A stretch of DNA of 37,997 nucleotides, taken from contig CAZZBA010000005.1 in assembly GCA_964652765.1 (NCBI GenBank), positions 1 to 37,997 on the forward strand. Direction: 5' to 3'. This document shows positions 1-35,849 of the stretch, one piece after another. The notes under the pieces were generated by a model, which saw nothing but the letters and a program-made list of their open reading frames with translations, was not told the DNA's origin and did no database searches. Positions within the stretch are counted from its first letter, which is position 1, and each line of letters begins with the position of its first letter. Origin of the DNA: an uncultured Victivallales bacterium (GTDB lineage Bacteria > Verrucomicrobiota > Kiritimatiellia > UBA8416). The position numbers were made by a program, and so were the translations under genes.

Positions 1-125
1 GCAAACAGTGTTTGCTTTGTGTGGCGTTTTGTGGCAAATTCGGGAGTTCAGTGGTATAAGGTGCTTTGAGGAAACGGTTCCGGTTTCCGCCAACATAGGT
101 TTACTAGATGTTTGGAGGCATGATG

Positions 126-3100: not shown

Positions 3101-6100
3101 GTTCAGCGAGATCGAGGCGGAGTATTTCACGGTTGCCACGATCGGGCGCGAGACCACGCTGCGGACCGATTGGGAACACAGTGCCGACGGCTGGACCGTG
3201 ACCAACATCAATGGCGGCGTCTGCTGGGAATACGGCCAGCCTCTGACCTACGGCCCGCAGGATGATGCGCGGTGCTGGGGAACCATCCTGAACGGACGTT
3301 ACCCCGATGGTGCCAATGCGCTGCTGACCTCGCCGCCGTTCGGCGTGCGAGAGCGTCCCATGCTGGTTTTCCGTCATTGGCTGGATGTGCAATACTCTAT
3401 GGATATGCAAGGGGTCTCGCCGTCGCCTCCGCCGTTTGGTGATTATGGCAAGGTCGAGGTGCTTTCAAACGGTGTCTGGCATGATGTGACCCGCTACATT
3501 GAGGGGCGCGATGCGGCAAGCTATGTCCGCGTGGTCAACACCGATAACACGAATACGGTGATCACCGGCCAGAGCGATGGCTGGCAGGACGTGCGGGTGA
3601 ACCTGCCAGCGTCATTCGCCAATCAGCCGCTGTCCGTCCGCTTCGTGTTTGTCTCGGACCAGCAGTCGTTCGGGGCGGGCAATCCGGCTGGCTGGTATAT
3701 CGACGAGGTGACGGTCCAGGATGTCCCCGGCAACGGGCTGGGCATCTCGCAGGTCGACGTGAGCGATGTCAATGGCTTCAACGGGCTGACGCTGGTCGGT
3801 GACGCCGACGACCATGCCGAGGCGGGCGAAACGGTAGCGATCCGGCCTTACCTGTTCAATTACGGGACCACGACCTTCGGCAACCTGTCCGGGACCCTGA
3901 CCGTGCAGATCGGCGGCTACCCCGTTACGAATGCGCTGCTGCTTGACGGGGCTCCTGCCGCCGTCAGCTATACCGGACCGATTGCCCCGGCGGATCTTGT
4001 GCCGGCTAACGAGTGGATCCGCCTGCGACTCTCGCCCGGCCTGGCACCGGGAACGGTCGTGACGCTGCTGCAGTCCGTGACCAACGCGGCCGGCCTGCGG
4101 CTGGATTCGCGCTACGACCTGGTGATCAATACCGTGGTGCCGATCAGTGGTCTGGTGATCGATGCCACCACCAGCAATGCGATTGCCGCCGCCACCGTGA
4201 CGGCCGTGCGCGAGAGCTGGCAGCAGGGCAAGGTCACCGGTGCGGATGGGCGATTCGTGTTCAATGGTCTCACCGCCGGTGATGCCTACACCCTGACCGC
4301 CGGCAAGCCCGGCATGTATGCCTCGCAGACGCAGTCGGTAACGGCCCCGGCCAGCAATGTGCTTTTTGTGCTCGGCATGCCGATTGCCAGTTACGCGCCG
4401 ACCTCGCTGGCGTTCACGGTCGTCGCCGGTGGCAGCGTGGGCGACAGCGTGGTGTTCAGTAATGCCGTCGGCGCCACAGCCCCGCTGGATGTAGCGCTGG
4501 AGGAGATCGACTACCATCCGGCCGCCTCGGGATGGCTTGTCGTGACACCGCAAAGCGCACAGCTCGCCCCTGGCGCTGCCTCTACCTTTTCCGTGACAGT
4601 GGATGCCTCTTCGCTGCGTGCCGGGACCTATCTGGCCGAGCTGGTCTTCAGTACCGACGACCCGATGCTTGCCATGGTGCGGGTGCCGGTCGAGGTAACC
4701 GTCTGGCGCGAGCCGATCCTGGCTTTCGGCGGGTTATTGTTCGAGGATGACTATGCCGGGGACGGCGACGGCCAGCTGGAGGCCGGGGAAACCGCCCGCA
4801 TATGGGTTTATCTCAATAACAGCAGCGGGTTGAGCGATGTGGTGGATGTAACCGGTACGCTTAGCACCACCAACACGCATGTGACGATCAACCCGCCGCC
4901 GACGCTGCACTGGCAGTACATCGCCCCCTACAGCTCTCGCCTTTCGACCAACGGCGTCGAGGTGGTGCTCGATCTGGCCACCCCCGCAGGCGAGGTGATA
5001 GACTTTAATATCGAATTGGTCTATTTCGACGGGCTGGTCTGGCAGACCAATCAGGCACCGTTCTCCTACACCTATCTGCCCTACCACTCGGTCAGCGGCA
5101 TCGTCGAAGGGGTGGTCTGGAACGAGAAGAACAAGGCTCCCGATGGAACCGTCCCGGTCGCCGGGGCGCGGGTGACGGTAGAGGATATCCATGGCAACCT
5201 GTTCTCCAGCATGCCGACCGACACCAATGGCGTCTATGTCCTGCCGCCTCTGCCGCACGGGGATCTGTGGTTCAAGGTCTACGAGCCAGACGGCTCGCCC
5301 TACGTCCCGCCCGCCGGAACCAATATTCTCGTGAATGCCGATACGACACAGGACTTCCTGCTCAATAACTACGGCACCAATGGCCCGATCCTGCGTTTCG
5401 AAGAGGTACGGGTCTACGATTACGGCGGCGATTTCGACGGCGCGTTCGAGCCAGGCGAGACTCTCTATATCTATGCCAGTATCTACAACGAGGGTCGCAA
5501 GAATGCCACCAATGTCACCGACTTGATTGAGCTGGCCGACATGGGAGCCTACGGCCCGTTCATGCAGGTCACCCAGGCGTCCACGTTCACGACCAATACC
5601 ATCTACATGGTTCCGGAGTGGGCACGGCGATACGGCTATGAGTATTTGTATTCGGTCGATCTTTATTATTTCGAGGCGACGGTCAATGCCGATGCCGTCG
5701 AGGGGGGCAAGCAGCGCTTCTGGTTGACGACCACCGATGGCGGACGCGTCTGGCCGTTTGATTTCTCGATCACGGTGTCATCGAGCTACAGCATCGGTGG
5801 ACGGGTGACCTATGAGTTTGGCGCGTCCGCGCCTGACATCACAGTCCGGGCGGAATTGCCTGATGGAACCGTTATGACCGATATCACGGACTGGTCTGGT
5901 TACTATGATTTCGAAGGCTTGGCTCCCGGCACGACAGGGATTGTTGTGCGGGCCATCCCGCCCGGTGATTACGCCGTCGAGCCGTTGTCCTACGAGCTCG
6001 GTCCGCTGACCAATGACGTGACGGGCGTGGATTTCGTGCTCAAGGCCAGTCAACTGTTCCTGAGCCCTTCACCGTTGACGGCGACGGTCAACGAGGGGGA

Positions 6101-9100
6101 AAGAACCAATGCCTGGCTGACGATCCGGAATGCCAGCACCAATGCGACGGTCGTTGACCTCAGCGTGGTCTATACGCGTGGCGACGACGATCTCCTGCCG
6201 CCGCCGGAGCACGATCCGCTGTCGCTGATCCTGACGCCGACGACGTCCTGGAACGAACTGGATGCGGATGACTATGTGCCGGGTGAGCTGGAAGTGCGCT
6301 TTGCCGACGGGACCGGCTGGATCGAGCGCGAGGCCATCCTCAAGCGCCATGGCCTGCGGGCGACCCTGCACCTGAAGCTCGTGCCTGCCTGCCTGGCGGT
6401 ACCGGTCGATACGACGGCGCTTGGCGATGCAAAACCCCTGGCGCTGGCACCCCTGGCGCAGGCGCTGCAGGCCGAGCCAGGCGTGCTATACGTCCAGCCT
6501 GCCGCCCGCATGGCGCAGCAGGCGCTGCCGAACGATCCGCTATTCGACAAGCTCTACGGCTTGCACAACACCCGCCAGACCGGCGGTACGCTCGGTGCCG
6601 ATATCAATGTGACGAATCTCTGGGACCGCACGACCGGCTCGCGCGACATCATCGTGGCCGTCTGCGATACCGGGTTCGACAAGACGCATCCCGACCTGCT
6701 TCCCAATTTGTGGAGCAATCCGGGCGAGCTGGCCGGAGATTCCAATTTTGATGGCTATCCGGGTGTCCGGGGGGTTGACGACGACGGGGACGCGACCAAC
6801 CAGCTTTACCATTATGACGAGGTCAGCGGCACGACCGTAGGCCCGGAACTCGTGCACCCGCTCTTTGATTCCGAAATGTGGAAGGATAACCGCACCCGCA
6901 CAGTCGTTCCCGGCGTGCCCGGCACCAACCGGTGGGTTAATGGTGCGAACAGCATTCCGGACTATTTCGAGATGTACCTCAACGGCGAGCTGTCGTTTAC
7001 CGATCTGGTTGCCAGCCGACCGGCCTACTTCGGCGACAGCAACGGCAATGGCATCCCGAATGTCTTCGAGGACATACAAGGGCCCCGCCCCGGCACCCCG
7101 CCCGACGGCATCCCCGATATCTTCGCCGACGAGGATGGCGACGGCATCATCAACGAGACCGGTATCGACTTCCGCGACGAGGATGTCATGCTCGGGGACT
7201 ACAACAACAACGGCCAGCCCCTGATCAAGCAGGTGACAGCTATTCTTCCATGGATCAACTCGACGAGTTACCGGGTCGTGCTGGAACAGTGGAACGGCCT
7301 GGGCCTCGCGGCCGATGACGACGACGAGAACGGTTATGCCGATGATCTGAACGGCTGGAACTTCTATCACGGTGACGGTGACGTGACCGACGGGGACGTA
7401 CTAAGTGCCCACGGGACACACGTCGCCGGCACGATCGGTGCCGTCGGCAGCAACGGCGTCGGTGTCGCCGGCGTCAACTGGAACGTCAGCATCATGCCGC
7501 TGGCCCTGGTGTATCGCGCGGAGGATCCGTACACCGAATCACCGTTCACCAGCAGTGCCCGGATCGCCCAGGCGATCGAGTACGCCATTACCCATGGGGC
7601 TCGCGTCAGCAACCACAGTTGGGGCGGCGCCGCCGCTTCCGGCGTGCTTTACGAGATCATGAAGCTGGCCGAGCGCGACTACAATCACCTTTTCGTGATT
7701 GCCGCCGGCAACTCGGCCAATGATGTCGACAACCGGAAGTTCTATCCGGCCTACTTCAGCACGGTGCTTAACAACGTCATCACCGTGGCGGCTGCCGATG
7801 ATCATGATCAGTTGGCCGAGTTCAGCAACTACGGGCTCAACAGTGTGCAACTGGCCGCGCCGGGCGTGGATATCTACAGCACCTGGTCGAGCCGGTCTGT
7901 CCAGATCCTCTTGATGTACCCGGAGACGGAAGCGTATGTGGATGAAATGCTGGCGTCGGGTGAGCTGATCCTGCAGGACGGGGCCTACTACCGCCGCATG
8001 AGCGGTACCTCCATGGCGGCCCCGCATGTGGCCGGGGCGGCGGCACTGCTCTGGTCGCTGAGCCCGGATGCTAATTACAGTGTGATCAAGCGTGCGCTGC
8101 TGGACGGTGTGCGCCTCGAGTCCAATCTCGATGGCTGGGTCAAGACCGACGGGTTACTCGATCTCGGGCGGGCAGCCCAGATAATGGGTACCGATTGGCT
8201 GAGATTCAGCACGAACCAGATCCCGGTCGGCGCCGGTGCCTCGGTGCAGGTTGAGGTGCTATTCAACCCTGATCTGGATACACGGCCGGGCTTCTTCGAG
8301 GCCGAGATCGTGGGCGATTCGGATGTCGGTCGCGACCGCATACCGGTGACCCTGACCGTCCTGTCTGGCGGATCGCTGGAGGTGGATGGCGTCCGCATTA
8401 CCGCGGATACCGATAACGACGGATTTGCCGAACCCGGCGAGACGGTTTCGTTCGTGATCGACATTTACAACCCGGGCAACACCACGTTCATCAATCTCGC
8501 TGGAACCCTGGCGGCGGTGACCCCCGGGGCGGGGGTAACGACGACGACGGCCGGTTGGGACTACCTGTATGGTGGCCAGAGTGGTGAATCGCTGACGGCG
8601 TTCACGGTCACGATCCCTGCCAGCGCACCAGCCGAGACGCTGTTTGAATTGACGCTGACGGCGGATGATGTCGCCGCGCAGATCTTGGGTGTCTCCCTGG
8701 CGACGCAGACCCGATACGCTATTGCTGGCCGCGTGGTGACGACGGGCGGCAGCGGCATCCAAGGCGCCATGGTCGAGTACCGCGGTGCGTCGGGTGGCTA
8801 TGTGCTCAGTGGCACCAACGGCGTCTTCATTCTCTCGGGCCTGGTGGCGGGTGATTACCTGCTGCGGGCGATTCCGACCGGCTATGCCCGGTCGGCGGAT
8901 CTGCCTGTGACCCTCGCCACCAACGATCTGACCGGTATCAAACTTGAAGTCGGTGCCCCGGTAATCGGCCTCTCGGCGACCAATATACAGGCGGTCCTGG
9001 TCAACGAGATGGACTGGATTGCCTCGGTTGCGCTCAGCAATACGGCTGCCGACGCATTCGGTTACGCGCTGGATGTCATGCCGCGCCGCCGCATCGGGCT

Positions 9101-11840
9101 GTTTGCCGATGGAACCAGCCTGGGCGTGCTGGTCGCCCCGCTCGAGCGCATGGGCTTCGAGGTGGACTACTACACCAACAACTACGCGACGGTGCACGAG
9201 ATTGATCCGGCCACCGCCATCGAGGAAATTGTCCAGGATGTGCGCTACACGGATGATGATGCCAGGGTGTTCCCCTATGACATGGTGATTGCCGACCTGA
9301 CCGGGCCACATGGCGGCGGCCGCGTCTTCAGTGAGGCGGAGGCGGATGTCTTCTCGCGCTACCTCGATCTCGGCGGAGCGTTGCTCTTCACCGGCGGCAA
9401 CTCGCTTAATCGCCCGGATAATGCCGGGATCGCATCACTGTGTGGCGTGGATCTCGGCTATGTCTCCACCAGTCGTGTGAGCGAGGCGCAGGCGGTAACC
9501 AACTGGAATGGGGTCTTTGTGACTCTTGACGCTGGCGATCGCCTGTCGGTCAGCAATTTCGTCCACGACCTCGCGGCCCCGACCAACGCGGCCACGGAGG
9601 TGCTCTTCACTGCCGGGGCGGCCTCGAAGCTCACGCGTCTGGCGGGGGTGGGAGCCAAGGGTCAGGGGCTGGTCATGCTCTGGGGCGGGAATCCGGGGGC
9701 ATGCGACTGGAGTAGCGAAGGCGCGTGGCTGGATGTGTTGCGCGATATCCTGCACCAGCGGTTCATGCAGCCGATGGCCACCCAGACGAGCGTTCCCTGG
9801 CTGACGGCTACGCCGGTGACCAACAGCGTTGCTGCCGGCACGGTTAGTCTTTCCGTGACGCTATCTTCCGGTTACCTGGCGGCGGACACCTACCGGGCCG
9901 TGATCCTGCTGCGCGGGCTGGACCGCGACGAGGAGGTCCTGGCGATCCCGGTTTCACTGACGATCTCGCCCTACAATCTGCGGGCCTATACCAGCACGGG
10001 TGTGATGGACACCCAGGGTCTTCCGCTTTCCGGCGACGGTAGCAACGATTCCCCGCTCTACCAGGTGATCTACGCCGGGACCAACGGTGTGGCCGATGCG
10101 CCGGATACCGCTACCGGCTCGCCGGGTGGCGATGACCAGTTGCTGGCGGCGATCCCCTCCGGTCAGGCGTTCGGACGCTTCGGGGATGGCGAGGGTGTCG
10201 TTCCCGATACCGGCATTTTCGACCGGCACTTCATCAATACGATCCCGTCCGATGCGGTCAATCCGCGGGTGTACGTGCGTGCCTGGGACGGGGCGTCCTT
10301 CGCCTCCTCGCTGACCTATGGCGATTCCGGCCTCAGCAATCTGGTTTTCAGCACTGCGGCGGCGGTCGATTTCGGCACCTGGACGTTGAACGAGTCGATC
10401 AGTCTGGCGTTGGATTCCAACGGTGATTCGCTACCGGATGCCTGGCTGTTGCAATACCGTCCGGATATAGATCCGCTGGCGGCGAACGGTCCGCTCGAGA
10501 CGGATTATGATGCCACGGTCATCGCGACGATCAATGCAGCGGGTGGAGCCACACCGCAACCCTATCGCGTGCGGTTCTCAATGCCGGGTGCGGCGTTCAT
10601 GTTCGTACTCGACAAGGCCAACAACCGCCTGATCTCGATCCCGACGAACTCGCCGGCGACACAGATTCGGTACGGCAGCGCGGGTACGGCCACCAACCAG
10701 TTCGCCCAGCCCGAAGGGTTGGCGGTCGATCCGCGGGCCGGGCATTACCGACTTGCCGTGGCGGACACGGCCAATAACCGTATCCAGTTGTTCACGTACA
10801 ACCCGACCAATGGCGTTATCAGCTTTGAGCGGTCGGTCGGATCCCTCGGTAGCGGAGTTGGACAGTTCAAGAGTCCCGGTGGCGTGGCGTTCGACAACAC
10901 CGGGCGTGTCTTCGTGGCTGATACGGGTAACAACCGGGTCGCGATTTTCCGGGTCTCCGACGCGGTCTGGTACGGGTCCTTCACCGGTACGGGTGCCTAC
11001 GTCCTAAACGCACCGCGCGGGATCGCCTTTGACACGCACTTCAGTGATGGCGGCGTCTGGGTCTGCGATACGGGCAACGATCGCATGTCGCTGTATTTCG
11101 ACAACGGCACCTTCCGTCGCAGCTTCGGCATGGCTGGGACGGTAGACGGCCGGTTCAACGATCCGGTGGATGTCGCCATCTGGCAGGTGGGTACGCATCG
11201 CCGCCTCGTGGTGGCTGACAAGGTCAACAACCGGATGCAGGTCTTCAACGCCGATGGGTCGCATCTGGCCTCCGTCGGGACCGGTGGCGGACTGCTCGGC
11301 CAGTTGTTGCTGCCGCATGGCGTGGCACCGCAGAACAACAGTGCCAACCTTTTCATCGCCGACACCGGCAATGCGCGGATCCAGCGCTTCGCGCTGACCT
11401 TGGATGCCGATGGCGATGGCATGGACGATTTCTGGGAGGATCTGAATGGTCTGGATTCAACCATTGATGATGCCTACGGGGATTTGGATAGCGATGGGCT
11501 TTCCAACCTGGCCGAATACCTGATCGGCACCGAACCGGACAATGCGGATACCAATGGCGATGGCATAACGGACGGCGACGCTGTGAACGGTATGTTGAAT
11601 CCGTTGTCCTTTGCACCATTCCAGATTGAATCGCTGGCTCCGGCCCCGCTCGGTGGTGGGGTGGTCATCGAATGGCAATCCGTGGCTGGCGAGGTTTACC
11701 TGATTGAGACAAATGGTTCGCTGATGACGGGTGTCTGGGGGGTCTACACCAATGTCGTCGGAACCGGGGGTACCAGTTCGGTGGAAATGCCGCTGCCTGG
11801 GAGTTCGTTCCTGTATTTCCGGATGCAGAGGATACCGTAG
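126..11840 (+). CDS. Giant (~3,900 aa) secreted multidomain protease: signal peptide, C25 propeptide, gingipain-like peptidase C25, FN3-like and jelly-roll domains, 4x (GDxDG..E(A/P)GET beta-sandwich + carboxypeptidase-regulatory-like) modules, BACON-like domains, subtilisin S8, GATase-like fold, NHL repeats, DxDxDG repeats, C-terminal beta domain
   Basis: Uninterrupted ORF 108..11840. GGAGG at 114-118 lies 7 nt before ATG 126 (ATGs at 108, 120 and 123 are alternatives). Basic then hydrophobic N-terminus. C25 motifs: YVVLVGD, SDLYF, AIGRVA, NHLGHS, QGC, LHGDP. S8 motifs: VAVCDTG, HGTHVAGTIG, AAGN, GTSMAAPHVAG. NHL motifs: F..P.G.AVD/VADT.NNR repeated. Confidence 0.93.
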   Translation: MAAFNGVFRKGNGRWFSRLILAGAALLVTGGIGLAAPVPGGSGWRTASGAMVSDAGDGAVMVQALAAPANTQRLVFRFPAVALKRGPDGLLDISLPSAGQWRQPGEPVLPMLSTRVALPQGHALVSFNVVPSDPQELVLDGPVRHAQRPYPLSRPQDRVETPASAAIYGADSPYPAVLHTDGSVQTKRGVGFVDLALFPVSYRPASGRLTAYGTLTLEVVTRPVKDPGISLNAADDGWRARLRSADDLAVLESLIENPQTLAEYQPEVASDDVGTISLAGAEDPGQPPLPCRLGSVFKHLIITTRNIRDGIVDAGTAIAQIFSEHAYLFIYPDPQTDWEIDMQAVADAGGYPVDIGDELEQEFVDKSLDALGVASNDWYYAFEFNDPALDGDASGTPDWMELLVGTQTNGVPFRFTYVAFTNRPLDGIVALRQAQGLSSTVISIESILETYQSLGMEEEQALRTFIRDAYDKWITEYVVLVGDGTVMPMRTLRAEASPYIDDLPSDLYFQCLDGSFDSDGNGIYGEPTDGADRLDGRPGEDIDLYAELAIGRVAISDANAMSNWVAKVVRYETDRLAGTAPYLRGALLLGEYLGFGGISEYASPMMEEIRLGSSEHGYRTEGFAALDIHTNIVTLYDDEQPWTKYTAAAYINSNQFSLLNHLGHSDYNYNMKFYTEDVQFLLRNERPAFLYTQGCWPGAFDRDCIAGEFLGGSSTNALFGGVFNSRYGWGDYDTTDGPSQRYNRWFWHGFFGELIPETGVLNQMAHERNASRIGEEYMRWCYYESNLHGDPAQWLYGIEPSVTLDREAYRSDADAVVEVVLPLAGPTMQEVVVTVTTYTAFIDPILTTNVTCYRVGPTDRTARFASLAFSLADLGAVNGGTVRAEATLSLDGIPQLCDDRADIKDDPPRIMGHTLMADETYIDFSFTTDNPVTSEARIGDSIPLTADWQTVSDTRATFHSIRFEGLEPFTQYFIGVRIEDAAGNVVSIPTNLFSEIEAEYFTVATIGRETTLRTDWEHSADGWTVTNINGGVCWEYGQPLTYGPQDDARCWGTILNGRYPDGANALLTSPPFGVRERPMLVFRHWLDVQYSMDMQGVSPSPPPFGDYGKVEVLSNGVWHDVTRYIEGRDAASYVRVVNTDNTNTVITGQSDGWQDVRVNLPASFANQPLSVRFVFVSDQQSFGAGNPAGWYIDEVTVQDVPGNGLGISQVDVSDVNGFNGLTLVGDADDHAEAGETVAIRPYLFNYGTTTFGNLSGTLTVQIGGYPVTNALLLDGAPAAVSYTGPIAPADLVPANEWIRLRLSPGLAPGTVVTLLQSVTNAAGLRLDSRYDLVINTVVPISGLVIDATTSNAIAAATVTAVRESWQQGKVTGADGRFVFNGLTAGDAYTLTAGKPGMYASQTQSVTAPASNVLFVLGMPIASYAPTSLAFTVVAGGSVGDSVVFSNAVGATAPLDVALEEIDYHPAASGWLVVTPQSAQLAPGAASTFSVTVDASSLRAGTYLAELVFSTDDPMLAMVRVPVEVTVWREPILAFGGLLFEDDYAGDGDGQLEAGETARIWVYLNNSSGLSDVVDVTGTLSTTNTHVTINPPPTLHWQYIAPYSSRLSTNGVEVVLDLATPAGEVIDFNIELVYFDGLVWQTNQAPFSYTYLPYHSVSGIVEGVVWNEKNKAPDGTVPVAGARVTVEDIHGNLFSSMPTDTNGVYVLPPLPHGDLWFKVYEPDGSPYVPPAGTNILVNADTTQDFLLNNYGTNGPILRFEEVRVYDYGGDFDGAFEPGETLYIYASIYNEGRKNATNVTDLIELADMGAYGPFMQVTQASTFTTNTIYMVPEWARRYGYEYLYSVDLYYFEATVNADAVEGGKQRFWLTTTDGGRVWPFDFSITVSSSYSIGGRVTYEFGASAPDITVRAELPDGTVMTDITDWSGYYDFEGLAPGTTGIVVRAIPPGDYAVEPLSYELGPLTNDVTGVDFVLKASQLFLSPSPLTATVNEGERTNAWLTIRNASTNATVVDLSVVYTRGDDDLLPPPEHDPLSLILTPTTSWNELDADDYVPGELEVRFADGTGWIEREAILKRHGLRATLHLKLVPACLAVPVDTTALGDAKPLALAPLAQALQAEPGVLYVQPAARMAQQALPNDPLFDKLYGLHNTRQTGGTLGADINVTNLWDRTTGSRDIIVAVCDTGFDKTHPDLLPNLWSNPGELAGDSNFDGYPGVRGVDDDGDATNQLYHYDEVSGTTVGPELVHPLFDSEMWKDNRTRTVVPGVPGTNRWVNGANSIPDYFEMYLNGELSFTDLVASRPAYFGDSNGNGIPNVFEDIQGPRPGTPPDGIPDIFADEDGDGIINETGIDFRDEDVMLGDYNNNGQPLIKQVTAILPWINSTSYRVVLEQWNGLGLAADDDDENGYADDLNGWNFYHGDGDVTDGDVLSAHGTHVAGTIGAVGSNGVGVAGVNWNVSIMPLALVYRAEDPYTESPFTSSARIAQAIEYAITHGARVSNHSWGGAAASGVLYEIMKLAERDYNHLFVIAAGNSANDVDNRKFYPAYFSTVLNNVITVAAADDHDQLAEFSNYGLNSVQLAAPGVDIYSTWSSRSVQILLMYPETEAYVDEMLASGELILQDGAYYRRMSGTSMAAPHVAGAAALLWSLSPDANYSVIKRALLDGVRLESNLDGWVKTDGLLDLGRAAQIMGTDWLRFSTNQIPVGAGASVQVEVLFNPDLDTRPGFFEAEIVGDSDVGRDRIPVTLTVLSGGSLEVDGVRITADTDNDGFAEPGETVSFVIDIYNPGNTTFINLAGTLAAVTPGAGVTTTTAGWDYLYGGQSGESLTAFTVTIPASAPAETLFELTLTADDVAAQILGVSLATQTRYAIAGRVVTTGGSGIQGAMVEYRGASGGYVLSGTNGVFILSGLVAGDYLLRAIPTGYARSADLPVTLATNDLTGIKLEVGAPVIGLSATNIQAVLVNEMDWIASVALSNTAADAFGYALDVMPRRRIGLFADGTSLGVLVAPLERMGFEVDYYTNNYATVHEIDPATAIEEIVQDVRYTDDDARVFPYDMVIADLTGPHGGGRVFSEAEADVFSRYLDLGGALLFTGGNSLNRPDNAGIASLCGVDLGYVSTSRVSEAQAVTNWNGVFVTLDAGDRLSVSNFVHDLAAPTNAATEVLFTAGAASKLTRLAGVGAKGQGLVMLWGGNPGACDWSSEGAWLDVLRDILHQRFMQPMATQTSVPWLTATPVTNSVAAGTVSLSVTLSSGYLAADTYRAVILLRGLDRDEEVLAIPVSLTISPYNLRAYTSTGVMDTQGLPLSGDGSNDSPLYQVIYAGTNGVADAPDTATGSPGGDDQLLAAIPSGQAFGRFGDGEGVVPDTGIFDRHFINTIPSDAVNPRVYVRAWDGASFASSLTYGDSGLSNLVFSTAAAVDFGTWTLNESISLALDSNGDSLPDAWLLQYRPDIDPLAANGPLETDYDATVIATINAAGGATPQPYRVRFSMPGAAFMFVLDKANNRLISIPTNSPATQIRYGSAGTATNQFAQPEGLAVDPRAGHYRLAVADTANNRIQLFTYNPTNGVISFERSVGSLGSGVGQFKSPGGVAFDNTGRVFVADTGNNRVAIFRVSDAVWYGSFTGTGAYVLNAPRGIAFDTHFSDGGVWVCDTGNDRMSLYFDNGTFRRSFGMAGTVDGRFNDPVDVAIWQVGTHRRLVVADKVNNRMQVFNADGSHLASVGTGGGLLGQLLLPHGVAPQNNSANLFIADTGNARIQRFALTLDADGDGMDDFWEDLNGLDSTIDDAYGDLDSDGLSNLAEYLIGTEPDNADTNGDGITDGDAVNGMLNPLSFAPFQIESLAPAPLGGGVVIEWQSVAGEVYLIETNGSLMTGVWGVYTNVVGTGGTSSVEMPLPGSSFLYFRMQRIP
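1020..2505 (+). other. Peptidase C25 (gingipain-like, clan CD) catalytic domain within the first giant CDS
   Basis: Putative catalytic His (codon 2115, NHLGHS) and Cys (codon 2208, YTQGCWPG) are 31 aa apart, close to the His-Cys spacing of RgpB. The domain ends in the conserved L.GDP. Boundaries are approximate. Confidence 0.85.
6270..8170 (+). other. Subtilisin-like S8 domain with I9-like propeptide within the first giant CDS
   Basis: Triad: Asp codon 6666, His 7410, Ser 8010. Oxyanion Asn in AAGN. Propeptide YVPGELEVRF...YVQP precedes PNDP. Confidence 0.92.
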
Positions 11841-11852
11841 GGGAAATGTGAC

Positions 11853-12689
11853 ATGAAACAAGGCACTAAGATATTTACAGGGGCGGTGGCTGTTGGCGTC
11901 GCCGCATCCTGCGTCTGGCATCTGGCTGCCCTGAAGACGAAAACGGAGCAGGAACCTGTCGAGGTGCCCGCCGAGGCACCGAAGGCACCCCTGCCCGAGG
12001 ATATCGTTGGCGAGCGCATGGCCGACACGAACTATGTGGCGGCACTCAAGGTGCTGATTGATGGGCGTGGCGAGGTGATTGCCGAGTCCCAGGCGGTGCG
12101 TGCACAGATGGCGGACCTGCTGACGGCGGCGGCAGAAAAACTGGCCGGAGCTTCCAGCTCCGAGGCAGATGAGAAGGTGGCGGGAGCTTCCAGCTCCCCC
12201 GCGGAGCAGCAGGATCCGGAGCGGGATGTTTCTGGCACGACCGAACGGGAGCTAGAAACTCCCGCCACTATGGCTGCGACTAATGCCCCATTGGTTTCCA
12301 CGAATACCGCCCTTAAGGCCGGTACGCAACTGTCCGCGCCGGATGTACCCCCCGCCGCCCGATTTGACGGGATCGATCCCGCTCTCCTGGCGCAAGTGCG
12401 CCAGCAGCCGGAATGGGCGGTGCTTGAAACACGCCTGGACGCCTTGGCGGCAAAGCAGCAGGACATCCAGCTTCGCACCCGGGCCCTGATCCGTGAACGG
12501 ATGGAGGTGCAATACGCTGCAAGGGCCGCCGAGAACCCCGGACCGGTCACCCGTTCCCCGGCTGGTATCATCAAGCCGATGACCAACGCACCCGATTTTG
12601 ACGCGGTGAAACCGACCATCATCACCAATGTGCCGTCCGGTGGCGTGAAGCTGCCGCCCCGGCCGGACCGGAAGCCGATCACGCCATGA
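11853..12689 (+). CDS. Hypothetical 278-aa protein with N-terminal membrane anchor/signal, predicted helical segments and Pro-rich tail
   Basis: Starts 12 nt after the upstream stop, with a GGGGA SD-like sequence. Hydrophobic segment IFTGAVAVGVAASCVWHLAAL. Normal GC-rich codon pattern. No family recognised. Confidence 0.8.
   Translation: MKQGTKIFTGAVAVGVAASCVWHLAALKTKTEQEPVEVPAEAPKAPLPEDIVGERMADTNYVAALKVLIDGRGEVIAESQAVRAQMADLLTAAAEKLAGASSSEADEKVAGASSSPAEQQDPERDVSGTTERELETPATMAATNAPLVSTNTALKAGTQLSAPDVPPAARFDGIDPALLAQVRQQPEWAVLETRLDALAAKQQDIQLRTRALIRERMEVQYAARAAENPGPVTRSPAGIIKPMTNAPDFDAVKPTIITNVPSGGVKLPPRPDRKPITP
12141..12268. repeat. REP-like palindromes (GTGG-type inverted doublet plus a third copy) inside the 278-aa CDS
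   Basis: GTGGCGGGAGCTTCCAGCTCCC (12177-12198) matches the reverse complement of 12247-12268 at 20/22. The left arm holds the hairpin GGGAGCT-TCC-AGCTCCC. A related copy lies at 12141-12162. Confidence 0.8.
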
Positions 12690-12893: not shown

Positions 12894-12935
12894 TCGAAGT
12901 TCAGGGATATGGGCCCGATACGGGGAGAGAATAAT

Positions 12936-15900
12936 ATGAATACCATGAAACAAACCGGTGTGATCAATAAGATGGTTGGCTCGGCCTGGCTGCTGGCGGC
13001 CATGCTCGGCCTGGCCGTGCAGGTGCAGGCGGCGGACCCGATACCGCAGAGCATAACCGTCACGTCGACGCCCGCCAATGGCACGCATTATGCCTATGGA
13101 GAATCCATGCTCGTCAGGGTCCGGTTCGACCGTGCCATAGCCGTTGCCAATGGGGTTGTCGGCACCAGTCCCTATGTCAGCCTGACTATTTCCCCGACGG
13201 ATGCGACCAGCAACCGAGCCACATATCTCTTTGAAGCGGGCACCGATCTATTCCTCGAATATGTCGTTCAGGCTGGCGATTTCGCTTCCCCGCTGGCCAC
13301 GTCCGGTACGCTGCCGTTACGCGTTACGGGTACCACGGCGATCCAGGATGCGGCTTTTCCAGCGGATACCTGGAATACCAGTGATAACGTGCCGACCGCC
13401 GGGACCAATGCCCTGTCGGCAGCGGGGGCGGTGATCCGTACGGTCAGCATCACACCGGCAACGGCCGTCCTCCTGGAAGGGCAGACGCAGCTTTACACGA
13501 TCAACCGCGGCGGGCCGCGAGCCATTGCGCTGAACGTGAGCCTGACGTCCAGCCTGCCGAGTGTGGGCGCGGTTCCGGCCACGGTGACCATTCCCGCAGC
13601 TGGCGACCAGATCCAGTTCTCGGTGACGGCACTCTCGGTCGGTGTATCGACGATCACGGCCGACGCCTACCCGCTGCTCGGGGCGGCGGCGAATGAAACC
13701 AGCACGCTGACCGTGAATGCCGGTCCGGCGCCAACATTCACGATCCTGCCGCCCGTCACGCTTTATGAGGGCGTTAACTTTGACCCGACCACCTATCCGT
13801 ATCAAGGCAGCGGCACCATCCGGCTTTCGCGGGCGCCGATCGCACCGATCACGGTGACCCTGACCAGTTCAAACCCGGCGCGGCTGGGTTTCCTTGGCAA
13901 TGTCAATACCGTTACGTTCCTGGCTGGCCAGACCGAAAAGACGTTCCAGCTGGAAGGGTTGGGCGGAAATGCGGCAGTGCAGATCACGGGTACGGCCACC
14001 GCCCCGTATGTCTCCGATGGCGTGGCCGCCTCGGTCTCGATACTCAACGTGCCGCCTGTGATCAACAGCCCGGCCGATCCCTGGACGATTGCCAATAACT
14101 CCGAGGGTCGCACGGTGACATTTTCCTGGAGCGGCTCGGATGTCGCGGCCGATATTCCAAATCTGCAGGCCTATTACGATTTCGGTGACGGTAGCAATAC
14201 CGGCTGGCTTAACGGTGACGCCGGCACGACGACGCATGTCTACAACCTCGCGGGGACGTTCGGGGTGACAATCCGTTACCGCGACCAGGATGGCGGAGAG
14301 GTGACGCGCACGTCGGTGATTACGATTGATCCCGCTACCGAGATCCTCTTGACTGAGGTTGTCCGTGGCGACCCCGCAGATCCTCAGATACCACCCGGAT
14401 ATAAGGGTCTGCCCGGCCTGGGTCAGGGCGGGATTAACGATACGCTGGTCGAGACGCTGAAAGTGGCCGTGCCGGGTCCGCAAACCAACGTATTCACCAT
14501 CAAGTACAGCCCCACGCAGCCTTCCGTCGTGTTGGTTGCCAGTCCCTTTACCTCTGATATCGTGACGGCTGGCGCCACCAATATATACGACAGCTTCTTC
14601 CACGTCTGGATTGGTGAAGGATTCGTCTCGCCGGGTGCCATTGTGCCGATCGCCAATCCCACTGCGCGACTTGAGCTCAATGGCCAGGACCGCGATATCC
14701 AGGGCGTTTTCTCACGTGAATTCGCCCCGCGCGACAACTATGGCGATATCGATAACGATGCCTTGCCCGACCAGTGGGAGGAACTCTGGTGGCCGGAGCA
14801 ATTGATGTTCGAAACGCCCAACCGCGCGGCTAATGATGACGCCGACTTCCTGCCGCGCGGGGCCAATGCCAACATGGCCTATCCGGCGGGCGGTGGCAAC
14901 TATACACCCGATGGTGCGGGATTCGGCAATGTTTACGAAGTCCGCGGTCTTGATATTGACTTGAATGCCGCCAATTCGGATACCAATCCGGCTGGCGTCA
15001 TCCTGGACGAACCTCAGTATACGAACGATACGCGCGAGTTCTTCGGCACCGACCCGACGGTGGATGATACCGATGGCGACGGCTTCTCCGACGGCTGGGA
15101 ATACTATTTCTGGGTGAATGCCGAGTTCCGCGGTATTACCGGTGTCAGCTACAACCCTGGATCGCCAATGCAGGACGGTACCATTATTCCCTCCACCTTC
15201 ATCGAGGCGGCGTTTCATCCGCTGGTGGCGGGCAGTCAAGGCGCGGATCCCGATGGTGATGGGCTTTCCAATATCGAGGAATACGCGCTCGGCACCGACC
15301 CGATCAACTGGGACAGCGATGGCGATACCATGGCCGATGGCTGGGAAGTTTTCCGCAATCTCAATCCGCATGGCGATGATGCGGGTGGCAATCCCGATGG
15401 CGACTATATGGCGGCACTGGGGTATGATGCGAGTGTGCCGCGTCCGGCAGGCCCCCTGCTGTTCAGTGTGCATTACTATGTTTACGACCTGCTTCAGTAC
15501 GACCCCCGCACGGGCTGGTCAGGAACCTACACGCTACGTTCCCGTGCCGGTGCTGCCTTGGCTCCTGACACGACCGCGATGCTGAATATCGATGAATATG
15601 CCTTGATGCAGTTCTGGATCAACGAAAATGTGGTGGGTGCTGTCACCCCGGGAATGTGGGGCCGTTATTCCACTAATCCTCAGAGCAACGATACCGATGG
15701 TGACGGGGCGACTGACGGCTGGGAACTGTATGTCCATTTTGATCCGTCGCTTAACCAGGCTGGTCTCTTATGGGATGTCGACATGGATGGGTCCTTCCTG
15801 CAGAACGAATTCGCCGGTGTGGAGAGTTCTCCGAATTCAGGGGCGAGTCTGACGATCGGCTCGCAAACCACCGCGGGCACCTCAACCAACGCCACCGGCG

Positions 15901-18900
15901 TCGTGACCACGAACTCGACCACCACGGTGGTGGTAGTGGACTCCACCCCCTTGACGAACATCAACGAGCCCTGGTGGAACAAGTTCTGGCCGTCTGACCC
16001 GAACAATGCCGATACAGATGGTGACTTCGTTGGCGATGCCACCGAGCGGGCGGCTTTCCCCGTGGGCCCGTTCCTGTACACTGCTCCGGCGGAATGGAAT
16101 CAAGACTATATCCGTGGGGCGCGGGCCGGTGGCGGCCTCAACCCCTGTAGTGTCGATACCGACATGGACTTCATTCCCGACTTCTGGGAGGTCCAGTACC
16201 GCTACGACCGGGTGCAGTTCATGAATCCGGATGGCAGTACCTATCCTGTCGGTGGCATGGACGGATCGATCTTCGACTCGCGCAGCGGCCTGACCGATCT
16301 GACCGGCGCCGAGGAGAACTATGACTACGATAGTGATGGCCTCAACAACTATCAGGAATATTATGTCAACGCCATGTGGCACTTCAACTACGACAAGTGG
16401 GTTTCCGGTCTCGGAAACGGTGCCTATCCGCCTGCCGGCTTGATGCAGGGCGCGCCGCTCCATTGGGACTGGGCGATTGCGGCCAACTACTGGGAGCAAC
16501 CGATTTACGAGGGAATGTCTCCACCCTTCCATACCCCGTTTGTTTTTATCCTGCCCGAACCCCGTCCGTTCGTCCCGGCCTATGCCTCGGCCGATCCGAG
16601 TATGTGGGACACGGATTACGACGGGATGGATGATCATTATGAGATGTACTACGCCCTGAATCCGCTCTGGAGCGAGCAGCTCGATGCGATTGCCAAGGGT
16701 GCGCCTGCCACGGTGATGGATATCCGGGTACAGCCCTGGGCGGGAGGCGCGTCGCTGTCCGATCCGGACCAGGACGGTATTCCCAACTGGGAAGAGGCAA
16801 TCTTCCCGAGCCGCCCCATGCCCGAGAACCTCAATTCAAGTCCCTCGCCCCACTGGGTGACGGATACCTCGTACGAGCAGAGCTGGGTCAATCTCTATTA
16901 CCAGCCTCTCGGTCACGCCTGGTACTGGATGGAGGGTCTTGAGGGTGATCCGGTATACCCCTATCCGGCCGTCGTTTCACTGGCGGCATTCCCGCCGACC
17001 TATGTCTATTCCTTCGCCAACGACGAGGGCTACGATACCGATAACGACAACATCCCCGACCGGATGGAGACCACGGGCGCGGACAATGTCGGCCTGACCG
17101 ACCTGACGGACTTCGATAGTCCGCGCCTGCGCAAGGCTCTGTATCTCGACGGTGACAGTGCGGCGCGTACCAAGTTCGGCGTATCGCACGAGCTGAACCA
17201 GTTGCGGAGCTGGACGGTCGAATTGTGGGTGCGTTCGGAAGAGCCCGTCTCGCCGACCGGCGAACGGCAGATCATCATCGAGCGTCCGTTGCGGGGGCAG
17301 CCGACCGATCCGATGCCCGCACCGGAACTGGTGCGCCGTACGTTCCGTGTCGGCCTGGAAGCCGACGGCCGTCCGTTTGCGGAATACAATAACATGGGCA
17401 ACGAACTGCTTTCCGAGAACGTAACCGGGACGGGCTGGACGCTGCAGACTAACGTCTGGTACCATATCGCGGCGGTCCTCGATGGCGACAACAGCCAGTT
17501 CTCGCTGTACGTCAATGGCCTGCTCGCCGCCCGCAAGGGAACCGCCCTGATCCCGGCCACCGGTGTCATTGATGGCAACCCGCCGCTGGTCCTGAGTGCC
17601 CCCATTGTGATCGGTGCTGCCGACCGCAATCCCAATGGACGGGTCCAGAATCCGGTGCCCGGATCGGTGACGCCGCCGGATCTGCATTCGCACTTCAAGG
17701 GCTGGGTGGATGAGATCCGTGTCTGGCACGGTGGGCGTACACAGGAGGAGGTAAATGCCTCCCGAATGCAGCGCTTCACGCTGGATGATGTGAAGCACTC
17801 CATGACGAACTATGCCGCCGCCCAGGCGATACTTGAAGATCTGAATCCGCCGGATATGGGATACCAGATCTACAGTAATCTCCCGCCGGTGGTGTTGTAT
17901 CACTATGCGTTTGATAATCTGCCCGATCCCAAGCATGACCCGATCGTGCCGCAGCATTTCGAGCTGCTCAACGGACGCCCCAGCGACGGGTCGTATGTCG
18001 GTGTTCCCTGGTGGTGGCAGGCTCCTGACCGCAGCCGGGTCTACAACGATTACCGGTTCATCCAGTGGGCGGAAAATACCGCCTCGCACGTGCCAGCCTT
18101 GCCGTTGGTTAACCGCTTCGGTAATGTGGTAGACTACCAGTACGGGGTCGTTCAGTCCTCGCCATTCTGGACATCGCCGCCCTGGATGACCAATACGGCA
18201 CCGAACGCGACATTCGTGTTCCCCAACAAGACCTACCCCTCGCAGAACGATTACTACAGCGGCTTGTCGGCCCTGTCAGAGGGCGGGCGCAGCACGACCG
18301 GCCTGTTGCCGCTCTGGTATGCCAAGGCCGACATGGACGTGCCGCTCTGGGATAACGAGACTCCGGGCACGGCGTCCTACGACAGCAATGGCGACGGCAT
18401 TGCCGACTGGTGGGCACTGAGCCACGGCTTCGACCCGTTCAGCACGAATTCGATCGCCGACGGGGATGCCGACAGCGACGGCATCAGCAACTACTGGGAA
18501 TACCGCATCGGTTCCGATCCCAACGCCATGTATTCGCTCGATCCGACCGGAGACCGTACGGATGCGGAATATGATGCCGATGGCGACGGGTTGTCCAATC
18601 TGGACGAAACCACGGTGTTCATGACCGATCCGTCGAATCCGGATACGGATGATGACGGCTATAACGACGGGAATGAGGTCAAGGGTTGGGAGCCGGCCAG
18701 CGCGGATGAGTACGGCATAGGCCCTCAGGTGTCTTCGCCTGTGGAATCGCTGAGTCCGGAGGTGCGCCGCAGTTTCGTGGCGGCCGGGCGTAATATCGAA
18801 GTGCCGAAGAGCGACCGCTTCGCCTTCCTCGGCATCGAGGAACTCATCCTGCCGGGACCGACCGTCGATATCACCGCCCCGGCCGATGGCGCGAACATCG

Positions 18901-21900
18901 CGGTGCGCTTTACCGATGTGACGGCCACCATCACGCCGTTCGGCCCCGCCATCGATAGCGTGCTGCTCTATATCAATGATCGCTTTGTGGCGTCATATGG
19001 CAGCGTGGCCACCTTCACGGATACGGTGATCATCTACAGCGGCGAGAACATCATTACCGTGTACGCCATCGACACCGAAGGCGGGGTCGGTAGCGATACC
19101 ATTACCGTCAACGGCACCTTCCCCCGTGCCGATATCCGCGTGACACAGCAATGGGATGTTCCCGGCGATCTGGATACCTGGCTGATCGACCCGCAGGGTC
19201 GCACGATGGGCTTCTCGCCGGGGTCGCAGTTGGTGGTCGGGCCACCGAACCAGCCCGGCGAACCCATCCCGGGTGCTCAGCTCGATATTGATGATATACC
19301 AGGAACCGGTCCTGAGAATATCACGCTTGAGGAACCGAATTCGATTGCAGGTCAATACGAAGTCTGGATGAACAACTTCAGTCACGGCGGCAATCCGCTT
19401 TCCACCGTGCGGGTGCTGGTGCTGGAAGGCCGCGGCGGCGAACAGTATGTCGAATTCGGCCCGCAGGCGATGCCGATATCGGGAATGCAGAATCCGGACG
19501 CCTGGTGGCATGTGACGACCATCACCATGCCCGAAGGGACCATGAATCCGCCGGGACGCCCGGTCCTGCCTCCGGACAATATCGAGGCCCCGGATGTCGG
19601 CATCACGGCGGACAATGGCTGGACGATCGAAGCCTGGGTGAAGCCCGGCACGACGAACCAGACCGGCGCGATTGCCTCCTACAACACGCGGATGGGACGG
19701 AAACCGTTTGTCGTGGGGTTGGATGCCAACCGCCCCTTTGTGCAGGTCCTCAGTCACGGGGGTACGGCCTATGAGGCCATGGGCAACGCGATTGCGACGG
19801 GCGTCTGGACGCATGTGGCGTTCGTGTACAGCTCCAACGACAAGACGGTGCGGGTCCACATCAACGGCCTGCTGGCCGCTGCCAGGACCATGCTCGAAAG
19901 CCGCGATGAGAACCTGGGCCTGCTCTATATGGACACCACGGTCGACCGCGGATCCGGCGCACTGGCCTTCACCGATACGCTAATCGATGAACTGCGGGTC
20001 TGGAAGGTCGCCCGCGATGGCGGCTTGATCGCCGCGGCGATGCACGAGATCCAGAGTCCTAAGGATACCCTCGTGGCCATGTACCGCTTTGATGATGGCG
20101 GTGCCGATATCGAGGATAGCCGCTACCCGATGGACACGGCTTATGACCTCGGGCAGGGGACGATTCCGGATGCGGACCGCAATGCCAAGCCCGGTGTGGA
20201 TGGCGACCGGATGACGTCGGATGACGTGCCTTTCCTGGCCGCGGGGGGCCTGGATGGTGAAAACGATTATGTGACGTCGATGGACTATGCCGCGGTAATG
20301 GGCATTCTCGACTCGGATGACGACGGCATTGCCGACTGGTACGAGGATATGTTCGGCATTCCGGCCTCTTCCAACGTCGTCGGCGGCTTGGTGGCCGGTG
20401 CCGATCTCGACGGGGATGGCCTGCTCAACCTGTTCGAGTTCCATGCCCGCACCAATCCGAATGACGACGATACCGATGCGGATGGCGTGATCGATTCGGA
20501 AGAGGATTTCGATGGGGATGGGGTATCCAACTTCGATGAGCAGGGCCTGGGCACCTCGCCTTGGCTGAAGGACACGGATGACGATGGCGTGACCGATGCC
20601 AACGAAGTGGCTTATGGCATGTCGCCGACCAATTCGCTTTCGCCGGTCAAAGAGCTTGCCCTGCAGGTCAGCGGCAGTTCCGAAAGCTATGTCAGCGTGC
20701 CGCCGCGCATTGGTCTGGCGCTGTCCAGCTGGACGGTTTCAGCCAACGTCTATCCAGAGTCCTCGACGTCCGGCGCGACGCTGGTCGCCCGCGAGGTGCA
20801 GTCTGGCCAGTACACCTACCGCCTAGGGCTGGACACCAACCGTGTCCCGTACGTGAGCTACACGGCGGGTGACGGTTCCAATGTCATGCTGCGGGCCACT
20901 GGACTGCGAGCCCTGCCATTGTATGCCTGGACCACCGTGGCGGGTAGTTTCAGCGAGATTACCGGTGATCTGCGCCTGTCGATCGATGGCGTCGAGGTCG
21001 CGCATGTCAATACCGCTGGCCGCCCGAAGACCTTCGGTCTCGGACCGGTGCGTACCACCATCGGCAGGGGGGTAGATGGCTATCTCGACGAGGTGATGAT
21101 CCAGGATGGTGCCGGAATGCACCAGCTTCACTACAACTTCAACGACGGGACCCATGCCGCCGGCACCAGTGGCGAAGTCGACTGGCGCCATGGTCAGGTT
21201 GAGGACAGGGCGGCGCTGGAGGGCCTCGAGAGCAACTGGTGGCTCGAATGGCGCGATGCCGGCACGCTGGTCAACGCCACATTCGCGATCCATCCCGATG
21301 AGGTGGTGGCCATCGTCGATACCGATGGCGACGGCATGCCGGATGCCTGGGAACTGGCAAACGGCCTCAATCCCTTCAATGTCGATACGGATGGCGATGG
21401 CATCAGCGATGCCGAGGAGGATGCCGATCTCGACGGACTGAACAACTATTACGAGTACAGGGCGGGAACCGATCCGAACAATCCGCAGACCGTGGCCGGG
21501 ACGTATGACCGTGATGCCGATAGCGACAGCGACGGGCTCACGAACGGGGACGAGCAGCGCTATGGCGCGGATCCGGGACTGGCCGACACCGATGATGACG
21601 GCATGACCGATGCCACCGAGGCCGATCAAACTGCCGGTAGATTCACCCTGCCCTTCGCCTCGCTATCCTCGACCAACGGGGCGGGTGTGCTGTCGCTTTC
21701 CGCCAATACCCAGTATGTCGCCATGCCGGACCAGCTCCGGCTACGTCTGCCGGGCTCCTGGACAGTGGAAGCCTGGGTTCGTATGGATGCCGCATTTGGT
21801 GGGACCGCGACGATTATCCGGCGTGCCAGCGGTAGCCAGGTCAACTACGAGCTTGGCTTGACGGCCGGTGTGCCGTACATCCGTTTTGTCGGGGTCTACA

Positions 21901-30329: not shown

Positions 30330-30331
30330 TC

Positions 30332-30742: not shown

Positions 30743-30860
30743 GCCGAGCACAAGGAATTGAGAGCCACAGAAAAAGAAATTGTAAAGCATATGTAAACTG
30801 CGGTATTGTTGAAGAACTGCGGTCTAAACGTTGAGACGAACGATGAAGGAGAATGGATCC

Positions 30861-31971: not shown

Positions 31972-32109
31972 TATCGGTATGCAAGTCGATAAGTGTGTGC
32001 TAATATAGCACCGGACAACCCTGCCTGTCGAATTCCCAGGGAAAAGGGGTCCACGGGCGGGACGGGCGTGTCCGTCCGCACCGCAGACGTTCCGCGATCG
32101 AGGTGTCAC

Positions 32110-35789: not shown

Positions 35790-35849
35790 ATTATCATGAT
35801 TATTCCGTAAAGTGCAGTTGTCTGTTTATGGAGTGATCGGGGGTTGCAA

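Follow-up and report, generated by a model that had tools for sequence, protein, structure and literature searches.

We analysed the proteins encoded by a 37,997-nucleotide stretch of DNA (hereafter, the window), which is the entire contig CAZZBA010000005.1 (C5) of GenBank assembly GCA_964652765.1, from an uncultured Victivallales bacterium of the class Kiritimatiellia, phylum Verrucomicrobiota. We found that the dipeptide Thr-Asn (TN) is over-represented in the large proteins of the window, and that this excess is a signature of large extracellular Kiritimatiellia proteins, most of which end in a common C-terminal domain (CTD), and not a mark of exported proteins. The analyses described below show that Asn preceded by Thr, and less strongly by Ser, is a short motif held at raised density in these proteins through selection at the protein level. 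Judged from structural models, TN sites are located in surface loops and turns and, judged from alignments, they turn over between orthologues while their density stays. As the leading explanation, offered tentatively, we propose that TN is a lineage-specific sequon for post-translational modification.

TN excess in the proteins of the window

The number of TN expected was computed for each protein from its own Thr and Asn content. Giant 1, a protein of 3910 amino acids (aa) encoded at positions 108..11840 of the plus strand (Pfam domains Peptidase_C25, CarboxypepD_reg, Peptidase_S8 and NHL, with TSP3-like repeats and a CTD), contains 39 TN against 14.2 expected, at sites dispersed from residue 414 to residue 3881, and 12 of the reverse dipeptide NT. 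The GLUG protein (31993..35676, plus strand; 1227 aa from a GTG start; GLUG and five CHB_HEX_C_1 matches in Pfam) has 17 TN against 7.2 expected and 4 NT, and a 278-aa protein encoded between the two giants (11853..12689, plus strand) has 5 TN against 0.5 expected and 1 NT. Giant 2 (5484 aa; 12909..29363, plus strand; PKD, eight Laminin_G_3, TSP3_bac and a Fervidolysin prodomain with Peptidase_S8 in Pfam, followed by a CTD) carries 30 TN against 23.4 expected and 20 NT. Each protein was then shuffled as a whole and within local windows of 20 and 40 residues, the local windows controlling for T/N-rich patches (2000 shuffles each). The observed TN count was reached in 0/2000 shuffles for giant 1 and for the 278-aa protein, in 0-1/2000 for the GLUG protein and in 123-180/2000 for giant 2. 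Pooled, the four proteins hold 91 TN and 37 NT (binomial p = 2e-6).

A preliminary description of the window, made from the sequence alone, had counted by hand that five of the six Asn of the 278-aa protein follow Thr (DTN, ATN, STN, MTN and ITN), and had reported more than 35 TN in giant 1 and more than 15 in the GLUG protein; a recount bears these numbers out. The excess also stays after the per-protein expectation and the local shuffles, and is strong in three of the proteins. For giant 2, to which 'many' TN had been ascribed, the count is indeed high, but its excess over composition is weak. The same description had remarked on the absence of TN from the ATPase and the toxin-antitoxin-type proteins of the window. 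The zero counts are right, both for the AAA_14/DUF4143 ATPase (Pfam; 35844..37055, plus strand; 0.4 expected), which served as a cytoplasmic comparison protein, and for the DUF4160 and DUF2442 proteins; they are uninformative because the expected counts of these small cytoplasmic proteins are 0.5 or less.

At its N-terminus the 278-aa protein carries a hydrophobic anchor that includes a Cys (a signal-anchor, or possibly a lipoprotein, by its translation); a helical middle predicted to form a coiled coil and a Pro-rich end follow. Its TN codon pairs lie at 12027-12032, 12279-12284, 12300-12305, 12582-12587 and 12624-12629 of the plus strand, and four of the five TN fall within Pro/Ala-rich, probably unstructured segments. 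Taken alone, the protein has a Poisson p of about 1e-4, which fails correction for 3238 tests, so that it counts only within the class pattern described below. It matches no Pfam or NCBIfam family, and as a query it found no homologue in five genomes of the same genus. Small open reading frames (ORFs) of similar build, 19-30% identical, stand between the giant 1 and giant 2 orthologues at two loci of distant relatives (L062 and L063) and, by reading of the printed sequences, are themselves TN-rich.

Proteins of the genome that carry the excess

To the extent that the assembly allows (genome G000; 4.66 Mb, 635 contigs, 83% complete), we extended the counts to the whole genome. A simple codon-usage picker selected 3398 ORFs, of which 3238 proteins free of N were kept, and export classes were assigned with a heuristic signal-peptide and transmembrane classifier; class sizes are approximate because both the gene caller and the signal-peptide heuristic are crude. 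TN excess at Poisson p < 0.001 was seen in 14 of the 3238 proteins, against about 3 expected. All of them are large and of surface type, and many have a common C-terminus, "...FYR[IV]...". The motif [FYW][FYW]R[IVLMF] in the last 16 residues, used with no other criterion, defined a class of 13 proteins, from which one evident membrane protein was dropped. In the remaining 12, TN stands at 226/100 (observed/expected) = 2.25 (z 12.5), the top of 400 dipeptides. A set of 13 proteins defined by a hidden Markov model (HMM) of the CTD gave a similar picture, with 231 TN versus 108.7 ± 8.8 in 20-residue local shuffles.

Exported proteins at large do not share this bias. The 774 remaining signal-peptide proteins, those without the C-terminal motif, are at 877/861 = 1.02, and the 1893 cytoplasmic proteins are at 919/1053 = 0.87. 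Enrichment as a general property of exported proteins, which the preliminary description had put forward, was thus rejected; the genome-wide comparison of signal-peptide with cytoplasmic proteins that it had envisaged brings out a strong bias for the CTD-motif class and values near chance for the other exported proteins. The excess is not a general trait of T/N-rich giants either, since 17 T/N-rich secreted proteins with a short tail, many of them PATR-type, are at 124/155.9 = 0.80, two of them being enriched nonetheless. A 5198-aa cytoplasmic megasynthase has 8 TN against 7.5 expected. The short tail of the 17 secreted proteins reads ...P.GT, then 4-5 hydrophobic residues and a terminal R/K (contigs C104, C14, C76, C61 and C236, for example).

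The domains found on TN-rich proteins are unrelated to one another (S8, C25, GH5+CBM9, LRR_5, beta-helix, RHS, Laminin_G_3, MBG, BACON and TSP3), in agreement with the earlier remark that TN is spread across unrelated domains.

Distribution of the excess among lineages

Relatives within the class were sampled as CTD-bearing long open frames. Length and score in the search tables decided which were taken, irrespective of TN, so that the sample is not random. The 42 CTD proteins from the order are at 1009/481 = 2.10, and 40 more from 26 further families of the class are at 891/395 = 2.25; TN ranks 1 of 399 dipeptides in the order sample and 1 of 400 in the class sample. Four well-assembled genomes contributed 18 more CTD proteins, all with TN above 1.7. 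Together, these 100 in-class CTD proteins are at 2244/1007 = 2.23, with 96/100 above 1; z-scores for them overstate the number of independent events, because the sampled proteins are kin, orthologues included.

Outside the class the picture is different. In 20 CTD proteins from other Verrucomicrobiota classes TN is at 126/110 = 1.15 (rank 51 of 384; 10/20 above 1), most of this excess being provided by one protein (20/6.7). The bias is also absent from a related genome, G032 (the genome of locus L061), the seven CTD proteins of which are at 30/37.8 = 0.79 (rank 286 of 352). Three giant-1-like frames of G032 are at 0.80-0.95, and no substitute dipeptide stands out in G032 in place of TN. In G031 (the genome of L063), two giant orthologues are neutral (0.97 and 0.70) and another CTD protein is at 2.43. 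G032 and G031 are natural controls in a search for the gene responsible.

That the bias would be specific to the lineage had been anticipated in the preliminary description, and it is indeed found throughout Kiritimatiellia. The proposal of an extracytoplasmic (T/S)-N mark holds as far as the proteins concerned are extracellular and Thr is preferred to Ser; it has to be narrowed to a subclass of large extracellular proteins.

Nature of the signal

In the 100 in-class CTD proteins the observed/expected ratio is 2.23 for TN, 1.33 for SN, 0.88 for NT, 0.84 for VN, 0.79 for IN, 1.00 for TD and 0.81 for TQ. The signal is directional and specific for a hydroxyl residue before Asn. Several trivial causes were rejected: a preference for a beta-branched residue before Asn, by the values for VN and IN; local T/N-rich patches, by the lack of enrichment of NT, TT and NN; and an artefact of composition, by the per-protein expectation together with the whole-protein, 40- and 20-residue shuffles. 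Repeats or paralogy were rejected as the sole cause because sites are dispersed over unrelated domains, though some are repeat-borne. The latter include SVTNIG (LRR_5), GLTN and GTNP (TSP3-like) and YTVTNVP (CarboxypepD_reg-like modules), repeat or family motifs in which other lineages have a different residue, as well as sites in the repeated Ig modules of a protein on contig C35.

A cause at the level of DNA was rejected by a frame test and by Asn codon use. The hexamer ACNAAY occurs 504 times in the coding frame of 22 proteins, against 214 ± 11 in codon shuffles; as these proteins were partly chosen on TN, it is the contrast between frames that counts and not its size. In the other two frames the hexamer occurs 43 and 6 times and on the reverse strand 33, 64 and 28 times, with no enrichment. 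The choice of Asn codon after Thr is the same as at other Asn.

Across 1233 TN sites the flanking pattern is weak: charged residues, acidic as well as basic, are depleted between -1 and +3 (Asp at -1, 0.46), whereas Pro, Leu and Ser are favoured at -1 and Gly, Leu, Ala and Ile after the Asn. Gly is the residue most enriched after TN (1.38), yet it follows only about 15% of the sites (180/1233). Hydrophobic residues alternate on both sides of TN, including further downstream. There is about one TN per 85 residues. Gaps of fewer than 10 residues between successive TN are rarer than at random (7.3% versus 12.2 ± 0.6%), and long TN-free stretches are present (coefficient of variation of the gaps 1.31 versus 1.20).

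Two structural models place the sites. In the model of a GH5+CBM9 protein encoded on contig C127 (mean predicted local distance difference test, pLDDT, 76.6; the tail domain, with pLDDT below 50, was ignored), six of the seven TN sites that fall in modelled parts lie in loops or in two-residue hairpin turns adjoining strands (block pLDDT 51-86), and the seventh is in a helix, at an Asn that is invariant in the family. In the second model, that of the GLUG protein's CTD, TN occupies the hairpin turn between the first two strands.

Turnover of TN sites

The GH5+CBM9 protein has TN at 10/4.1. Its nearest homologues in the public collection, which are 70% identical and have a different end ("...FLRLKVTQP"), are at 5/4.7, 4/5.2 and 8/6.7, and they carry RN, IN, VN, TT and others at its TN sites. 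The GH5 catalytic domain of this protein (contig C127, L015) was found at 65-79% identity in proteins of different organisms (P0003-P0121), fused variously to CBM9, He_PIG, malectin, a Por_Secre_tail of the type IX secretion system (T9SS) or a CTD. These combinations point to module shuffling or to transfer between phyla.

Few TN sites of giant 1 are common to its orthologues: 0-2 of 28-34 aligned sites at 35-40% identity, and 4/7 at 51%. One loop of the CTD reads TNL in 3/10 sequences of the genome itself, in 15/40 of the order and in 22/39 of the class; in other classes the same loop is TNL in 0/19, with TDL, TSL, DTL and others instead. In eight closer orthologue pairs, which overlap and are not independent, Thr before Asn is kept in 66.0% of cases versus 59.1% for other Thr (p 0.005), and Asn after Thr in 64.8% versus 60.4% for other Asn (p 0.09).

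The C-terminal domain

The CTD comprises the last ~90 residues, follows the pattern EY.AGTDP....S.F.I ... W.SV.GR.Y.V...TNL....W ... FYRI.V and closes all three large proteins of the window. In giant 1 it is encoded at 11553..11837 of the plus strand and ends in ...FLYFRMQRIP (own HMM, E 2e-21; genome profile search match, 11568-11834). In giant 2 it lies at 29076..29360 of the plus strand and ends in ...RFYRVVVVPGTNPYP (own HMM, E 1e-21; genome profile search match, 29049-29339), and in the GLUG protein at 35389..35673 of the plus strand, with the end ...RTFYRISVELAD. An AlphaFold2 model of the last of these, built from an alignment of 108 CTD sequences (mean pLDDT 95.1), has a short helix followed by a beta sandwich. 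Its structural matches are at the level generic for FN3-like folds: the best Foldseek E is 0.04, and the best VIA Z, to FN3 and cytokine-receptor domains, is 6.4, with a root-mean-square deviation of 2.5 over 75 residues. The model is suggestive of an FN3-like fold.

No Pfam or NCBIfam model matches the CTD. In particular, Por_Secre_tail (PF18962 / TIGR04183) was not found in the three CTDs of the window, in Pfam at E up to 1 and in NCBIfam at E up to 0.1. A search for SprA of the T9SS machinery (PF14349) had no match in the five genomes searched for enzymes (see below), and its control search was likewise silent everywhere, which leaves this negative uninformative. The CTD is present in 31/31 genomes of the order and in 71/81 sampled genomes of the class; beyond the class, five more families of the phylum sample have it.

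Search for a modification machinery

Five genomes were searched for enzymes: G000, G001 (93% complete), G019 (94%), G023 (91%) and the TN-neutral G032. STT3 (PF02516) was not found in any of the five, while the control matched in four archaeal genomes; this absence is not proven, because the genomes are incomplete. GT41 (PF13844) was not found in the five genomes either, and its control matched in two genomes. The sequons N-X-S/T and D/E-X-N, the enrichment of which is an indirect test of their use, show no class-specific enrichment in CTD proteins: N-x-T is at 1.26 in the CTD proteins of G000, 1.15 in class relatives and 1.21 in other classes, N-x-S at 0.91-0.99 and [DE]-x-N at 0.87-0.98.

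GT-C proteins are present in G000, with 8 PMT_2 and 11 Wzy_C. They do not discriminate, because PMT_2 and Wzy_C proteins occur in all five genomes, G032 (with six Wzy_C) included. Two candidates were followed across a 71-genome sample of the phylum, and 15 other GT-C proteins were scanned against Pfam. Both candidates were rejected as the TN enzyme, being sporadic: L200 (PMT-like, 921 aa) is present in 2/22 in-class genomes and L206 (Wzy_C, 960 aa) in 1/22. The preliminary description had proposed to look for homologues of oligosaccharyltransferases (OSTs) co-distributed with the bias; neither STT3, GT41 nor these two candidates showed such a co-distribution.

On contig C35, a gene for a PMT_2 membrane protein (13851-15488, plus strand) is convergent to that of the most TN-rich protein of the genome (15804-18827, minus strand; 27 TN versus 5.0 expected). 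This adjacency is weak and may be due to chance, because the genome has eight PMT_2 genes.

Explanations for the TN excess

We favour, tentatively, the view that TN is a lineage-specific modification sequon. The motif would be read by a lineage-specific factor, and either the Thr hydroxyl or the neighbouring Asn would be modified, by glycosylation or otherwise, on the way out of the cell or once in the periplasm. Enzymes other than the canonical STT3 or GT41 would be at work, and the modification might give proteins that face the outside of the cell a coat or added stability. On evidence that is indirect throughout, this is the most economical reading because a hydroxyl is needed, the bias depends on lineage and compartment, sites turn over at kept density, and the motif has decayed in one lineage. 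Eukaryotic and viral N-glycosylation sequons behave in the same manner, their positions turning over while density is kept. A more specific version, that a system operating without STT3 or GT41 throughout Kiritimatiellia uses a two-residue (T>S)-N sequon on extracellular proteins, many of them routed by the CTD, and was lost in G032, where the motif has decayed to chance, is possible, but we consider it rather doubtful.

A number of observations weigh against a modification sequon. The enzyme searches returned neither STT3 nor GT41 in the five genomes, PMT_2 and Wzy_C proteins are present in the TN-neutral genome too, and the two GT-C candidates that were followed do not track the bias. Because the other exported proteins show no bias, a periplasmic system of general scope would need to be neutral towards them. 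The correlation between TN and the tail, strong as it is, is not exclusive, because several TN-rich giants, among them three RHS or LamG/TSP3 proteins encoded on contig C20 and one protein encoded on C35, end without the tail domain; conversely, giant 2 (1.29) and a 2484-aa family (0.69-1.28) have a CTD without clear excess. Purifying selection on TN, as estimated from orthologues, appears only modest and non-uniform, and it runs the other way in the GLUG family, where the Thr and Asn of TN are conserved more poorly than those elsewhere. Finally, a purely structural motif would account equally well for the position of the sites in turns and for the scarcity of short gaps. Such a motif would be a cap at strand ends or in beta-turns (ST-turn, Asx-turn or T-N-G hairpin), in which the backbone of extracellular beta-rich proteins is capped by the hydroxyl of Thr together with the side chain of Asn, and which is favoured for stability or solubility. 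In its favour are the modelled sites in hairpin turns and loops beside strands, the enrichment of Gly after TN with hydrophobic residues alternating on both sides, the depletion of short gaps, as for one site per turn, and the failure of the searches to identify a modification enzyme. Turns obey the same chemistry everywhere, yet there is no excess in the CTDs and GH5+CBM9 proteins of other lineages or in the giant 1 orthologues at L061 and L063, and other exported proteins of the same genome are at chance. Moreover, Val and Ile are depleted before Asn, Gly follows only a minority of TN, and TN is also found in the Pro-rich end of the 278-aa protein, which is probably disordered. On balance we regard a structural cap as somewhat unlikely.

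The bias tracks a sorting-type tail domain and not a fold, and it is specific to a lineage, as would be the case if TN were a recognition element for a chaperone or export component of CTD cargo, for a processing protease or for binding to the polysaccharide on the cell's own surface. Giant 1 and a protein of contig C405 do carry peptidase domains of type C25 (clan CD), and the class is rich in C25 and S8. We nevertheless judge such a role improbable: dozens of sites in a single protein are many for processing or targeting, no partner was identified, and TN-neutral G032 retains both CTD proteins and a giant 1 orthologue. Least plausible by far is that the excess is an artefact of composition, T/N-rich patches, repeats, paralogy or a codon-pair or mutational bias in DNA. 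Repeats or conserved motifs do account for some of the sites (SVTNIG of LRR_5, the Ig modules on C35, TSP3-like GLTN/GTNP and TNL of the CTD), and the sampled relatives are kin and were chosen as long open frames. Against this stand the two-fold excess left after composition-corrected and local shuffles, the lack of enrichment of NT, TT and NN, the restriction of the hexamer excess to the coding frame, the unrelated domains, the depletion of TN in the Thr/Asn-rich PATR-type set and its chance level in the cytoplasmic giant.

Comparison with known systems

Two-residue turn and capping motifs, such as T-N-G type I' turns, the ST-turn and the Asx-turn, are well known. TN resembles them in lying at strand ends and in turns and in being favourably followed by Gly, and differs in that they are universal, whereas the TN bias is confined to one bacterial class and one protein class. 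Among modification systems, the cytoplasmic N-glycosyltransferase HMW1C/NGT (GT41) uses N-X-S/T and modifies many Asn on very large surface adhesins, a likeness to the proteins described here; however, no GT41 was found in the five genomes, and N-X-S/T is not specifically enriched in CTD proteins. N-glycosylation by OSTs (PglB/AglB/STT3; N-X-S/T and D/E-X-N-X-S/T) likewise centres on Asn within a short motif that exported proteins carry. There the hydroxyl residue is at +2 and not at -1, and STT3 is the enzyme that the five genomes failed to yield.

PglL/PilO O-oligosaccharyltransferases act on Ser/Thr of periplasmic and surface proteins, and G000 has its 11 Wzy_C proteins; Wzy_C is found in TN-neutral G032 as well, and the one tested (L206) does not track the bias. 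In the passages on sequons and motifs of a review (PMC12645811), PglL is given no defined sequon and other enzymes are listed with C-terminal or internal Ser/Thr sites; T-N is not among them. The best model for a TN sequon is the general O-glycosylation of Bacteroidota, the motif of which is given as D-(S/T)-(A/I/L/V/M/T) in PMC8550257. It shares with TN a very short, hydroxyl-centred motif used lineage-wide on extracytoplasmic proteins, and among its substrates are secreted cargo proteins that have a C-terminal domain of beta-sandwich type. In contrast to it, TN sites are depleted of Asp at -1 and have Asn at +1 by definition, the CTD has no Por_Secre_tail match, and the lineage is Kiritimatiellia. 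Literature listings and abstracts on Kiritimatiellia glycoproteins, Verrucomicrobia O-glycosylation and Thr-Asn sequons describe no such motif.

Because the class has cultured members, Kiritimatiella glycovorans and Pontiella species (PMC5148204 and PMC7356697), the modification hypothesis can be put to a direct test. If it is true, a new bacterial protein-modification system, with a sequon unlike any on record, would have been found from sequence statistics alone, in a little-studied, globally distributed group of polysaccharide degraders. Even if the motif is structural, it constitutes a clean lineage- and compartment-specific dipeptide bias, about 2.2-fold and first of 400 dipeptides, that is absent from the same domains elsewhere. 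TN density also offers an easy way of recognising a class of extracellular proteins from sequence.

Other features of the window and gene order

Between the giant genes and the GLUG gene lies an overlapping, toxin-antitoxin-like gene pair on the plus strand, for the DUF4160 (30072-30329) and DUF2442 (30275-30580) proteins (Pfam). It is followed on the same strand by an ORF for a Ser/Thr-rich protein of 347 aa (30831-31874), which matches no Pfam or NCBIfam family and has 0 TN against 1.7 expected.

The order of a giant C25/S8 gene, one or more genes for small anchored coiled-coil proteins and a giant Laminin_G_3/S8 gene is seen in the window (108-29363) and again at L062 (9812-31811) and L063 (3933-25080). 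Conservation of this order in two distant relatives suggests that the giant, small and giant proteins may form a functional unit.

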